From IMG/VR virus record IMGVR_UViG_3300028186_000155: 64,000 bases of DNA; one strand, written 5' to 3'. The notes under the pieces were generated by a model that was given only the letters and a program-made list of their open reading frames with translations, ran no database searches and had not been told where the DNA came from. Position numbers and translations under genes: made by a program. This stretch comes from a virus. Lineage: Duplodnaviria > Caudoviricetes. Below, in pieces: positions 238-51,409 of this stretch; position 1 is the first letter of the stretch, and every line of letters begins with the position of its first letter.

Positions 238-972
238 TCAAGGGTGTTGCAGATGTAGTTCGTGTTTTTCCATAGGGCAGGCAAGGCCGGGATGGATCGA
301 TCCCATCATGTTCAGCATTTGCCCAGCGTAAAACGCACGGTAAATTTGTTGGTGCTCGATAGCGTTCAGCAGTTCAAAATCGTGGCCGAGATATTCGTTT
401 TCTTTGTAGCCAACGCTTTCCATCGCGGTGCGTACCCGGTCGGCGTGGTTCGTGATGCCCACCAAATCGGCGCCGTCGATGTAAATCAGGAATTGTTGGA
501 ACAGATCAGCAGCCAACGGCCCGTGTGGTTGCACCACGCTTTTCGGATTGGTCGCCCAGTCGTTAGGCAAGCTGCCAACGTCGGTTAACCACTGCGCGCA
601 TAGGCCCTCGATCTTGTTTACAGTTTCGTCCAGCTGCCTTTGCTTATCGACAGCACGGCGGGCGGATTCGGCTTCGCGTGCTGCGTACTCAGGCGATGCC
701 ACCCATTCGGCACGGCGTTTATCACTCATTTCCTGATACCGGGCGCACGCCTGTTCGACGGTATCCCCTCCGATCAAGGGCACGGACAAATCGTTGAATT
801 TGAGGAAGCCGCACGTGTTACCGTGGCCATGCAGTTTGGTTTTATACACCAGCTGCCCCAAAGCCGACGAAATAGCGTTGGAAATGTGCGAACCTGCATG
901 TGCAGCGAAGTAGTAAACGGATTTGCTGTTTTCTATCGCGTGGCGTTCGATGTATGCGTCTTGGCCCATCAT
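238..972 (-). CDS. hypothetical phage protein
   Basis: 244-aa ORF in a tightly packed minus-strand array. Confidence 0.8.
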   Translation of the reverse strand: MMGQDAYIERHAIENSKSVYYFAAHAGSHISNAISSALGQLVYKTKLHGHGNTCGFLKFNDLSVPLIGGDTVEQACARYQEMSDKRRAEWVASPEYAAREAESARRAVDKQRQLDETVNKIEGLCAQWLTDVGSLPNDWATNPKSVVQPHGPLAADLFQQFLIYIDGADLVGITNHADRVRTAMESVGYKENEYLGHDFELLNAIEHQQIYRAFYAGQMLNMMGSIHPGLACPMEKHELHLQHP

Positions 973-1169
973 CTGATTGGATTCCGTTGAAGGTCTATAC
1001 GAAGCGCTGCGTTTTTGCGGCGCTCTTCGAAGATTTCAAAACCGTGCTTCTCGCGGTGGTCGCCCAGCGGGAACCGAGAACCAGTTCGCTGCATGCGCAC
1101 TTCAGCCGCCTGCAAAATGGCTTTGACCACCGTGTCGTAAAATTCGTAATCTGCTTCGGCGCCGGTCAT
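969..1169 (-). CDS. hypothetical protein
   Basis: stop/start overlaps with both neighbours. Confidence 0.65.
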   Translation of the reverse strand: MTGAEADYEFYDTVVKAILQAAEVRMQRTGSRFPLGDHREKHGFEIFEERRKNAALRIDLQRNPIR

Positions 1170-1669
1170 TAATCCTCCACCGGAATTTCCATGATTTCGA
1201 AGTTGCGCAAATGGCCGTCAACCCCACGCTGTTTGTGGTAAACCTTGGCAGCGTAGGCCGTGACTTCATCCGGGCGCAAATACACAGGCAACCACGTGTG
1301 GAATTCTTCGGTTACGTCTTCAGGCCTTTGGTTCAGCCAGTCGCGGAAACTGCCTGCATCGACCCCCGGTTGGCGTTGCGGATATGCCACCAGAAAACCG
1401 CGATATTGCACATGCGGATCAGACGGGCAAAAACCATCAGCCTCACACGAAAGCAGCCACGCATATTCCCAATACTTGCGACGGTCTGCCGAGAACTTTT
1501 TGTGGGCCGGATCGTGCACCGTCATATCCAGCAAATAGCCTTCCGCCTGTTGCGCCAGTTCGATAAGTTCATCGACCGTCATTTCGCCCAGTTCACGGCG
1601 CAGCATTTTGAGGCGCAGCGGTTCCAGCGTGGTGATAAAACCTTTCTCTGCAATTGGCATTATTTCCAC
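1169..1669 (-). CDS. hypothetical protein
   Basis: coupled 166-aa ORF. Confidence 0.75.
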   Translation of the reverse strand: MEIMPIAEKGFITTLEPLRLKMLRRELGEMTVDELIELAQQAEGYLLDMTVHDPAHKKFSADRRKYWEYAWLLSCEADGFCPSDPHVQYRGFLVAYPQRQPGVDAGSFRDWLNQRPEDVTEEFHTWLPVYLRPDEVTAYAAKVYHKQRGVDGHLRNFEIMEIPVED

Positions 1670-2058
1670 CCGTATACTGCTGGATAAGAACCGCTGGTGA
1701 TGCGGCCCATTTCGTTGGCGTAATACAGAACAACCAGATCAGAACCCCATGAGGCTTCGAGGGCGTGAATCAGATTTACCAACGGCTCTTTCAGATGCTC
1801 ACGCAGCGCCCCGTTAGCATCAAACAGGAAATGGGCTACACGAATATGCTCTTCGGTTCCGCGCTGGCCTTCGGTGCCAATATCTTCCAGCCGGTAATCG
1901 GTGTAATACGGATCGAATTTCGTGGTGAACATGCCTTTGTGATCGAACAGGCTACAGAAATGACGCACCGTGTGACCACGCATTTCCTCAAGGCAGCTAC
2001 GGTCGCGCCGGTAATCGTCAAAATACGCAACAATTTCTTGTGGTGTTGGGACACTCAT
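1660..2058 (-). CDS. hypothetical protein
   Basis: coupled 132-aa ORF. Confidence 0.75.
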   Translation of the reverse strand: MSVPTPQEIVAYFDDYRRDRSCLEEMRGHTVRHFCSLFDHKGMFTTKFDPYYTDYRLEDIGTEGQRGTEEHIRVAHFLFDANGALREHLKEPLVNLIHALEASWGSDLVVLYYANEMGRITSGSYPAVYGWK

Positions 2059-2441
2059 TTGCGATTCCTTTTCGGCAAGATGCCGATGCTAAACGAAAAC
2101 GTCAGGCAGGTTATATTCCAGCAGCACGCTTTGACCACTGAATGTTCGATAAAACCGATTGCGAAAAGCTGGTTGTTGCGATTGCCTTTCGGGTCCGTGA
2201 TGTAGATCCACGTATGCGAGATTTTGAATCGCAAATAAAGCCTGCCGACCGCACCTTCAAGCGCCGGGTGATCAAGCGTGTGGCTGGCACAGGCAAACAT
2301 CATGTTTAGGCCCATAAACCCCATGAACACAACCCACCACCAGCTTTCCAGATGCTCATTCACAATCGAATAGGCGACAACGTGAATCAGCGTGATTGTC
2401 AGCCCGATTAAGATCAGCAAATTTCGAAACGTGCGATCCAT
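2055..2441 (-). CDS. putative membrane protein
   Basis: two N-terminal hydrophobic segments. Confidence 0.7.
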   Translation of the reverse strand: MDRTFRNLLILIGLTITLIHVVAYSIVNEHLESWWWVVFMGFMGLNMMFACASHTLDHPALEGAVGRLYLRFKISHTWIYITDPKGNRNNQLFAIGFIEHSVVKACCWNITCLTFSFSIGILPKRNRK

Positions 2442-49611: not shown

Positions 49612-49793
49612 TGAATTTCCCTTTGGTGTAACACGGTTAAACCGTGCAGTGAATTTACCTCTATAGCGCCAGCCAGTTGCAGGCATGTGACGCTATCGGC
49701 GTGTTCAATCGTTATGAAGGCTATCCCTAGTCTGTTTACAGTTTCTTCGACTTCGGCTGGCCGCTCATGATTGTCGATGTATATTTCAATCAT
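49608..49793 (-). CDS. small hypothetical protein
   Basis: coupled to both neighbours. Confidence 0.6.
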   Translation of the reverse strand: MIEIYIDNHERPAEVEETVNRLGIAFITIEHADSVTCLQLAGAIEVNSLHGLTVLHQREIQ

Positions 49794-51064
49794 TAGGTGA
49801 AGTTTCGGCTGCTTGTGTTGACGCCGGAACTAGATGCGTTCACGGTCTTTTTCGGGGCGGCAGTGCCGCTGGGGTTGCCCGCTTCGGTCAGGAACGGACG
49901 GTACAGATAAAACAATTCGGAATACTTTTTGCCGCCTTTGATCATGATGGTTTTGCCACCAACCACGTAACGGCCTGCAATGTCGTTGGGCGGCGGGCTG
50001 CTTGGGCCTTTGGCGCCGGAACCCTGCTGATAATCAATCGACTCGAAAGTTTTCACTTCGGTTGCCGAATCAGTCAGGGCAATTACACCCTCACTCAGCA
50101 TCGCCAGAAAACGCACATTCTGGTAATACGCACGTTCGTAAAATTCGTGGATGTTGAAGCCTTCGTCGGGACCAGTGCCCGGATCGAATCCAGCATAGGA
50201 AATCCGGGCGCCACGATCTTTCAACATGGCCAACACTTCCTCGTTTACAGGAACCCCGGCAGCACTGGGGGCCTCAACGTCGATGGACTCGATAGAAAAC
50301 GTCGCATCATCCGAACCAAAATCGTGACCAAACAGCTTGTGGCCGTAATTCACGAAGTGGGAAAACAAACCAGAATACGAACGGTCTTTTGCTTCGCGAA
50401 CATCCACTGCATTACCAGTGGCACCCGCACCGTCCTTGTTGTGAATCAATGTGTTTTTTGGTTCCTCTTTTAGGACTGCCATCAGGTCTTTGTAGACCAG
50501 CGTGCCGTCCATGCGCACACAGCGGGCCATGCAGCTTTGATCGCTCATGTACCCGTGTGCCGCCACGTCTTCAGAAAACGACAAACGTGTGTGCCCGATA
50601 TTCAGCCAAACCTGCGTGTCTTTGGTATCGCCTTTCGGCCCCTCATAACGCAGGCTGCTTCGTTCGGCAATTTGCTGCATGACATTGGCGCTAGAACCCT
50701 CAAACGATTCGGTGTTTGTACCGGCGCCGAATTTGGGCGCGTCGAGAATGCACACAACGTTCAAAACTTTACCGCTTGAGTTTCGGTGACGGCCCCAGCC
50801 GAACACCCGGAATTTGTATTCGGGTGCGGCGTCGGCGGTCTTGCCCAAACGAATCGAAATCGTGGTCCCTTCCTTGAGGTTTAAATCACGGCTCAAGGTT
50901 TCTTTTTCATCGTACAGCGACAAACGCATTGTCGGCAAACCCATGCCGAAACCTTCCATGATCAGGATATTTTCAATCAGGTTCATGGATGGCGGCATGG
51001 AACTACCTGCAATATCCAGCGTGCAAAACGCCATGCCGTCGATGTTGAGGGATGCTTGAGCCAT
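49793..51064 (-). CDS. baseplate hub protein (T4 gp27 / late-control-D-like)
   Basis: SFEGSSANVMQQIAE, GRYVVGG; position after gp53-like gene. Confidence 0.65.
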   Translation of the reverse strand: MAQASLNIDGMAFCTLDIAGSSMPPSMNLIENILIMEGFGMGLPTMRLSLYDEKETLSRDLNLKEGTTISIRLGKTADAAPEYKFRVFGWGRHRNSSGKVLNVVCILDAPKFGAGTNTESFEGSSANVMQQIAERSSLRYEGPKGDTKDTQVWLNIGHTRLSFSEDVAAHGYMSDQSCMARCVRMDGTLVYKDLMAVLKEEPKNTLIHNKDGAGATGNAVDVREAKDRSYSGLFSHFVNYGHKLFGHDFGSDDATFSIESIDVEAPSAAGVPVNEEVLAMLKDRGARISYAGFDPGTGPDEGFNIHEFYERAYYQNVRFLAMLSEGVIALTDSATEVKTFESIDYQQGSGAKGPSSPPPNDIAGRYVVGGKTIMIKGGKKYSELFYLYRPFLTEAGNPSGTAAPKKTVNASSSGVNTSSRNFT

Positions 51065-51079
51065 GATGGTTCCTAGTGT

Positions 51080-51409
51080 TTACAGTGTTAGGGTGACACT
51101 GCTTGCAGTGCTGGTTTTCGCTCGTTGCAGGCGTGTGGTCATTTCATTGATATCGGGTACGCGAATTTTGGCACCTTCCGTGATTTCCCAAATATCAACA
51201 TATCCGTTGTAGACCATGACAGCCCGCCACCATTTCGGCGTTCGGTACACGTTGTAGGAAATCAGGCCGGGGTTGAACTGCTCCATTGCGTTTACAGTAT
51301 AATCCCGGTAGCTGGTGGTGCCCGTAATGGCATCATAGGAATCGTCCAGCAGCGGATCGATTCCAAATTCATCCACGCTAATAAATTCGCGCTGATCATA
51401 AAGCGACAT
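51080..51409 (-). CDS. baseplate wedge protein (T4 gp53 / LysM-like)
   Basis: NPGLISYNVYRTPKWWRAVMVYNG..GAKIRVP. Confidence 0.8.
   Translation of the reverse strand: MSLYDQREFISVDEFGIDPLLDDSYDAITGTTSYRDYTVNAMEQFNPGLISYNVYRTPKWWRAVMVYNGYVDIWEITEGAKIRVPDINEMTTRLQRAKTSTASSVTLTL

Follow-up and report, generated by a model that had tools for sequence, protein, structure and literature searches.

A conserved 8-mer as a probable single-box promoter of Lu11/HRDY3-like Pseudomonas jumbo phages, with exact copies inside unrelated genes

Late promoters of phage T4 consist of TATAAATA, which is read by gp55 together with gp33 and the gp45 clamp, and middle promoters of the same phage combine a MotA box at −30 with a σ70 −10 element under sigma appropriation by AsiA. 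In phage phiEco32, gp36-dependent promoters carry a lone −10-like box that is read by a phage sigma factor. The element compared here with these systems is the 8-mer ACTGTAAA (hereafter the box), which recurs on one strand of a stretch of viral DNA of 64,000 nucleotides (nt) from IMG/VR record IMGVR_UViG_3300028186_000155 (hereafter the window, meaning the whole stretch), and which is probably a phage-specific single-box promoter like that annotated as a ‘putative middle/late promoter’ in Pseudomonas phage Lu11.

The genome of Lu11 was reportedly published by Adriaenssens et al. in 2012 (J Virol 86:6369). The box was already predicted in that year, in that the Lu11 RefSeq record NC_017972.1 marks intergenic copies under the label quoted above, as features of 16 nt that begin at the second base (C) of the 8-mer and have the core CTGTAAA(T)A. 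Features at Lu11 positions 114217, 124262, 124340, 130482, 218805 and 234364 coincide with the 8-mer, and the consensus is common to five genomes; in the two regions of the record that were read, 7 of the 18 copies are marked, and no intragenic copy is among them. What is new here is the nucleotide-level conservation of the intragenic copies and, as predicted from sequence, the assignment of the box to a middle class with a separate box at the virion genes. A full-text literature search for the 8-mer returned unrelated papers only, with no paper found that describes the box or transcript mapping in this clade, and jumbo-phage reviews mention the sigma factors of this phage group and not the box. 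According to one review (PMC7824862), Lu11 belongs to a set of jumbo phages that code for sigma factors and have no polymerase of their own.

The window corresponds to bases 90118-154117, read on the reverse strand, of one contig (G000) of 314,224 bp, the ends of which have 124 bp in common. In a 7-kb piece, identity to Pseudomonas phage HRDY3 (313.7 kb) is 78%, and Lu11 gives a weaker match; the window is part of a Lu11/HRDY3-like Pseudomonas jumbo phage of 314 kb. Gene calling on the contig gave 476 genes covering 95% of the genome, arranged in five strand blocks, of which those at 1-19, 224-262 and 270-314 kb are on the minus strand and those at 19-224 and 262-270 kb on the plus strand. The relatives compared were HRDY3, Lu11 and three further genomes (G001, G002 and G003), along with a more distant one (L091).

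An exact search of the window found ACTGTAAA 14 times on the minus strand and never on the plus strand, against a mean of 1.3 and a maximum of 5 copies in 100 dinucleotide-preserving shuffles. A sequence-only reading of the window had listed 14 strand-specific copies, and all 14 positions are identical to those recovered here; the five ETVN contexts that it counted can likewise all be read in the box flanks. Its division into 10 in-frame, 2 Leu-stop and 2 intergenic copies holds for the Leu-stop pair only, as we count 9 in-frame Thr-Val-Asn (TVN), 2 Leu-stop and 3 intergenic copies, because the copy at 49735 is here placed just past a gene end. The copies in the window, with gene lengths in amino acids (aa), are:

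617..624, minus strand: in a 244-aa gene (window 238-972), ETVN in frame, stop codon 379 nt on; exact 8-mer in HRDY3.
5372..5379, minus strand: in a 147-aa gene, TVN in frame; absent from every alignable orthologue, lineage-specific.
5904..5911, minus strand: at the end of a 221-aa gene, ETVN; overlaps the ATG of the next gene.
9148..9155, minus strand: in a 116-aa gene, TVN in frame; no orthologue aligned.
13787..13794, minus strand: 27 nt into a 115-aa gene, ETVN; lost in HRDY3 (two changes in the 8-mer).
21411..21418, minus strand: in a 207-aa gene, ETVN; exact in HRDY3, one mismatch in Lu11 (TCTGTAAA).
31064..31071, minus strand: intergenic; a 148-aa gene starts 81 nt downstream.
37008..37015, minus strand: its TAA is the stop codon of a 112-aa gene (Leu-stop); a 344-aa gene lies 105 nt downstream; exact in HRDY3.
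41220..41227, minus strand: in a 200-aa phosphoesterase-family gene, KTVN; exact in HRDY3, G001 and Lu11 at 50-55% protein identity.
42110..42117, minus strand: in a 150-aa gene, TVN in frame; exact in HRDY3 only.
44316..44323, minus strand: intergenic, 13 nt past the T-run of a strong terminator hairpin, next gene 30 nt downstream; exact in HRDY3.
49735..49742, minus strand: directly past a gene end; next start codon 123 nt downstream.
51079..51086, minus strand: its TAA is the stop codon of a 109-aa gene; a 423-aa gene lies 14 nt downstream; first box after the virion module; exact in HRDY3.
51291..51298, minus strand: in the 109-aa gene that ends at the 51079 box, TVN in frame; lost in HRDY3 and Lu11, present in G001.

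Across the whole contig the box occurs 50 times, and all 50 copies point with the surrounding genes throughout the five strand blocks. Two copies that look antisense under crude block limits (G000 19261 and 262169) are actually the first elements upstream of the two plus-strand blocks, where they head divergent units. Apart from a purine-rich family of the GAAGAGGA type, set aside as ribosome-binding-site-like, ACTGTAAA is the most over-represented sense-strand 8-mer in the contig. The codon-aware null that had been proposed with the sequence-only reading was run genome-wide and exceeded by a wide margin: 26 sense copies lie wholly within coding sequence, compared with 3.0±1.6 when synonymous codons are shuffled and 2.4±1.5 when codon order is, and antisense copies within coding sequence number 0 where about 1.3 were expected. 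At the protein level, Thr-Val-Asn tripeptides occur 46 times against 17.5 expected from amino-acid frequencies, and 21 of the 46 are spelled ACT-GTA-AAY, for which codon usage predicts 2%. The proteins that bear the box are unrelated (a 5'-3' exonuclease, a phosphoesterase-family protein, a KMPT-N protein and several PHROGs of unknown function), and this excess of one spelling in unrelated hosts therefore indicates that the DNA word drives the peptide and not the reverse. This codon-aware result and the nucleotide-exact conservation described below lend strong support to the earlier suggestion of protein sequence accommodating a DNA signal.

Chance or codon bias as the source of the box is ruled out by the dinucleotide, synonymous-codon and codon-order shuffles, and a protein repeat or paralogy as the source of TVN by the unrelated host proteins and their dissimilar flanks. 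Avoidance of Type III restriction was considered as the reason for the strand bias and rejected, because the box is enriched and not merely oriented, and because head-to-head pairs exist. Of the 24 variants with one mismatch, none is enriched on the sense strand and between genes in the way that ACTGTAAA is in the contig, and the 8-mer is therefore all-or-nothing. Two further strand biases were seen in the same counts: purine-rich 8-mers of the GAAGAGGAAGAG family (66-104 sense versus 1-6 antisense copies), which may represent poly-Glu coding or a ribosome-binding consensus, and CTGCGCGA (45 versus 6).

The copies are placed with respect to genes as promoters might be. Nearly half of them (24 of 50) are not wholly within coding sequence, where 6.2% of positions would be expected (P 3e-16), and 31 of the 50 have a co-oriented start codon no more than 125 nt downstream, as against an expected 19% (P 3e-11), with a median distance of 53 nt. 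In five copies the box supplies the TAA stop codon of the upstream gene, and three copies follow strong intrinsic terminator hairpins by 13-15 nt. In addition to the 31, two boxes, at G000 455 and 490, lie ahead of a gene that runs across the contig junction, and the equivalent pair in HRDY3 has a gene start 42 nt downstream. Back-to-back pairs occur where the primase gene and its neighbour diverge: HRDY3 has one at 159596(+)/159657(−), at a primase/nuclease divergence, the minus-strand partner of which has degenerated in G000, and distant relative L091 has one at 7606(−)/7633(+) that fills the 119-nt divergent gap between the primase gene and its neighbour.

Alignment of the sites extends the box to (A/G)AA-ACTGTAAA-Y-A, followed by 5 nt and then a pyrimidine-purine step, seen as a weaker T-A some 7-8 nt past the 8-mer; deep-intragenic copies have the same extended flanks. 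The purine 9 nt after the 8-mer (+16) is present in 203 of 236 sites from five genomes. Nothing is conserved farther upstream of the box in the aligned G000 sites, meaning that they show no −35 element, and a MotA-box-like reading (the box at −30 with a σ70 −10 element) is ruled out, as no TAnnnT occurs at a fixed distance. As a separate observation, a stable hairpin lies 5-10 nt after several boxes, e.g. at G000 4149 (−) and 10434 (−), outside the window; the hairpin at 4149 is followed by a T-run, and a transcript begun there would start within a terminator-like structure.

The box is a property of the clade, being enriched in G001, G002, G003 and Lu11 as well as in HRDY3. HRDY3 has 51 copies versus 7 of the reversed control word, and relatives whose sigma factor is 90%, 73% (Lu11), 64% and 56% identical have 52, 37, 62 and 36 boxes, respectively, versus 5-13 control copies. 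At alignable sites the exact 8-mer is kept in HRDY3 in 33 of 35 cases, with identity of 97-100% at positions −3, −2 and 0 to 7 versus about 73% in the flanks. The base immediately after the 8-mer (+8) is lineage-specific: C ahead of T in G000, T ahead of C in HRDY3, G in G001, C in G002 and T in 36 of 37 Lu11 copies. The intragenic boxes are nucleotide-exact at orthologous codons despite protein identities of 28-60%; in G001, G002 and Lu11 the spelling ACT-GTA-AA is used at each of the 21 orthologous Thr-Val-Asn/Lys positions, and nine intragenic sites are exact at the orthologous Lu11 codons. Such exact retention amid protein divergence rules out neutral persistence and marks the copies in coding sequence as functional sites. 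The intragenic copies are genuine sites kept by selection acting on the DNA, which forces Thr-Val-Asn or Leu-stop on unrelated proteins.

Several relatives also possess an array of co-directional boxes with a spacing of about 300-370 bp, found at G000 455-2504 (6 boxes, outside the window), Lu11 122330-124339 (6) and G001 231780-233805 (8), and present in HRDY3 and G003 too, with 4-8 boxes across genomes. Four of the array boxes are in frame within two adjacent genes of unknown function, at the head of the replication/recombination operon, to which the sigma, SSB and RecA-like genes belong.

Position, orientation, conservation and anatomy, together with the features of the Lu11 record, are the grounds on which we read the box as probably a phage-specific single-box promoter. 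Host core RNA polymerase, joined by a phage-made specificity factor, would bind the box as a −10-type element, with TAAAYA at −12 to −7, TG just upstream and no −35 element. Transcription would then start at the conserved purine 9 nt after the 8-mer, which falls at +1 if TAAAYA is set at −12 to −7. Intragenic copies would most likely serve as internal promoters that re-start or boost transcription within long, tightly packed operons.

With the annotation of HRDY3 and Lu11 as a guide, the genes downstream of boxes include those for SSB, primase, the clamp loader, a 5'-3' exonuclease and topoisomerase subunits, along with many small unknowns. No box occurs at G000 79840-102820, the 23-kb virion module (major head protein, sheath, tubes and peptidases; window 51.3-64 kb), and boxes resume at the first gene boundary past it; the 224-262-kb block of the contig also has none. 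With no copy in the virion module and with replication and accessory genes downstream of it, the box behaves like a middle class that serves replication, recombination and accessory genes, and unlike the T4-late class.

The virion genes carry a different single-box element, TAATTTAAT(A/G)GTA, seen at these window positions:

60217-60225, minus strand: TAATTTAAT element.
46163-46171, minus strand: TAATTTAAT element.

The genome has 19 copies of TAATTTA, every one of which runs in the direction of the genes; for most of them a start codon follows 11-72 nt downstream, and for one the 530-aa tail sheath gene begins after 44 nt. The count of the word itself is not enriched in the contig. We regard the TAATTTAAT box as a candidate late promoter. 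A third, σ70-like class consists of TTGAC, 17 nt, a weak −10, a hairpin and a conserved leader ACTCACGCAATTAGGGAAGTTT that ends in GGGAAGTTT before the ATG, and is likely, as predicted from these parts, an early promoter-plus-leader cassette. A σ70-type promoter scan of intergenic gaps gave few matches, and this early class came out only through its conserved leader. Five of its 8 genomic copies lie in the window, at approximate positions:

31283-31304, minus strand: σ70-like promoter and leader.
29783-29805, minus strand: σ70-like promoter and leader.
24540-24564, minus strand: σ70-like promoter and leader.
23325-23349, minus strand: σ70-like promoter and leader.
18330-18352, minus strand: σ70-like promoter and leader.

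The apparent programme therefore has three steps, namely a σ70-like early class, the box as middle class and TAATTTAAT as virion class.

The contig encodes one protein of the σ70 family (G000 307217-308230, 337 aa), which bears out the earlier suggestion of a phage-encoded sigma factor. Its Lu11 orthologue is gp174, and the genomes with a sigma of this family make up 88 clusters. It matches Pfam region 2 (PF04542, 25-28 bits versus a cut-off of 24) and PHROG 17569 ‘RNA polymerase sigma factor’, and a profile of 35 homologues matches RpoD regions 1.2-2.4; a single-sequence search against solved structures gave no match, only the family profile doing so. Its AlphaFold model has a mean predicted local distance difference test score of 81, and residues 4-228 superpose on σ70 111-446 (Z 12-16, root-mean-square deviation 3.4-4.4 Å). 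Region 4 has no Pfam match, and helices 283-335 at the C-terminal end can be aligned together with σ70, as far as about residue 580, only with a deviation of 13-16 Å. No second sigma-like match was found among nine proteins neighbouring the sigma gene. The sequence-only reading had proposed looking for a sigma or gp55-like gene: the former is present, and neither gp55 nor gp33 homologues were found, as the families matched by T4 gp55 (phrog_234 and phrog_12791) returned nothing in G000, where a very remote relative is still conceivable, and the T4 gp33 family (phrog_254) had no G000 match even at E ≤ 10. Its inference of a promoter for a phage sigma factor is accordingly upheld as to the promoter, and not as to a late T4-like class or a gp55 type.

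As regards this σ70-family protein as candidate reader of the box, all relatives examined, down to 36-37% sigma identity, have a box in the interval that separates the sigma gene from the SSB gene. In T4 and SPO1, the sigma gene is usually transcribed by the class preceding the one that it activates. Since the sigma gene here falls within a box-driven unit, we hold it possible, at somewhat less than even weight, that the phage σ70-family protein reads the box, and give the rest to an undetected early phage factor acting with host polymerase. The phage sigma may instead read the TAATTTAAT box, the TAATTT of which keeps the T, A and T of the canonical −10 element. As a side observation, a 186-aa protein with a Thoeris anti-defence Tad2-like domain (PF11195, E 1.7e-18) is encoded two genes upstream of the sigma gene, at G000 308493-309053 (−).

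Several points weigh against the promoter interpretation. One-mismatch variants of the box are not enriched, and all-or-nothing behaviour is unusual among σ70-type promoters; for 16 copies the next start codon is 200-780 nt away, a long distance for a promoter. PHROG family searches found no gp55 or gp33 relatives among the G000 proteins, and the sigma gene lies downstream of boxes with no other visible promoter, so that a box-reading sigma would need some other first source. The literature search found no transcript 5' ends or binding data for any phage of the clade. Finally, a motif confined to the sense strand would equally suit a signal at the RNA level.

Four other readings were weighed. 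There is a small but real chance that the array and intragenic boxes are more than spare promoters: they may be transcription-primed replication origins (R-loop, as T4 oriF/oriG), or the box may be read by a non-sigma phage factor through a new kind of promoter recognition, the σ70-like protein then being reserved for TAATTTAAT.

An RNA-level signal, i.e. a recognition or cleavage site on mRNA for a phage RNA-binding protein or endoribonuclease, would fit the fact that 50 of 50 copies lie on the sense strand and hence are all transcribed into mRNA, that many sit within coding sequence and several just upstream of start codons, and that the 8-mer is all-or-nothing, as is the case for sequence-specific nucleases. 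We nevertheless find it unlikely, given that boxes head divergent units and form back-to-back pairs 20-60 nt apart, where no upstream transcript of the same strand is expected, and that some copies lie only 13-15 nt past strong terminators. The purine at fixed distance and the A-rich upstream flank suit a start site, and Rfam and tRNA scans of the window gave no match, including none to an Rfam family.

A dedicated DNA-binding protein would account for the all-or-nothing 8-mer just as readily, and the box might then be an operator for a phage activator or repressor at promoters with degenerate polymerase elements. Such an operator would resolve the bootstrapping problem of the sigma factor, and regulator genes are near, namely those for a LytTR-domain and an HTH protein in the window and for a ‘putative transcriptional regulator’ beside a Lu11 box. 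It is nonetheless improbable, in that no σ70-type −10 (TAnnnT) or −35 occurs at any fixed distance from the box, the box has neither dyad nor direct-repeat symmetry, and a conserved purine merely 9 nt downstream suits direct placement of the polymerase.

The weakest candidate, an oriented DNA signal for replication, recombination or packaging (Chi-/KOPS-like) with genes co-oriented by the direction of replication, had been the alternative in the sequence-only reading and could draw on the exact 8-mer, its total strand bias, its lack of enriched degenerate variants and the conserved spacing of the six-copy array at G000 455-2504, in Lu11 and in G001, but is very unlikely, as orientation follows the gene blocks and flips at every strand switch, including that of a 7.5-kb block, back-to-back divergent pairs point apart, copies gather just upstream of starts in the 6% of the genome that is non-coding, and stretches of 23 kb and 40 kb have no copy at all.

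The window also encodes the following proteins, of which those of the LytTR and HTH_3 kinds that bind DNA are possible transcription regulators:

31366-31761, minus strand: LytTR DNA-binding domain protein (E 3e-13).
31772-32377, minus strand: VgrG3-like C-terminal domain protein (E 5e-56).
29970-30470, minus strand: weak HTH_3 protein (below the Pfam cut-off).

If the box is the promoter that we take it for, it offers a ready-made map of one temporal gene class in large, poorly studied jumbo phages of Pseudomonas and soil that rely on host RNA polymerase. Combined with the TAATTTAAT box and the σ70-like early promoters, it would outline a transcription cascade of three steps, open to direct testing in Lu11 and HRDY3, both of which are in culture. 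The exact retention of intragenic boxes while the proteins diverge deeply is a clear case from nature in which a regulatory DNA word sets the amino-acid sequence, and it flags putative internal promoters that gene annotation has overlooked.

Set against the systems with which we began, the box resembles T4 middle promoters in the class of genes served (replication and recombination) and in being a phage-specific box of about 9 bp, but has no σ70-type −10 element 11-13 bp after it, the sole downstream conservation being the pyrimidine-purine step. Its likeness to T4 late promoters is anatomical: a single, strictly conserved A/T-rich box near −10 without a −35 element, a TGTAAAYA that matches 6-7 of the 8 positions of TATAAATA, copies within upstream genes too, and a phage-encoded sigma-like factor. 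It differs in having G and not A at position 2 and an obligatory upstream AAAC extension; ACTATAAA, with A at the G position, occurs once in G000, and the sequence is accordingly not that of T4 TATAAATA. The absence of gp55- and gp33-family proteins among our matches, the lack of boxes in the virion module and their placement before replication genes also set it apart. With phiEco32 the box may share, by analogy, a single conserved TGTA-containing element near −10 that host core polymerase would read with a phage sigma, while the sigma family, phage group and sequence are different and the link between box and sigma in G000 is putative. Lu11 is the closest case, differing in the base after the 8-mer (T in 36 of 37 Lu11 copies, C ahead of T in G000) and alike in that the boxes of both phages are predicted promoters only; the two have the same box, clade and orientation rule, with boxes at orthologous positions such as that between the sigma and SSB genes.

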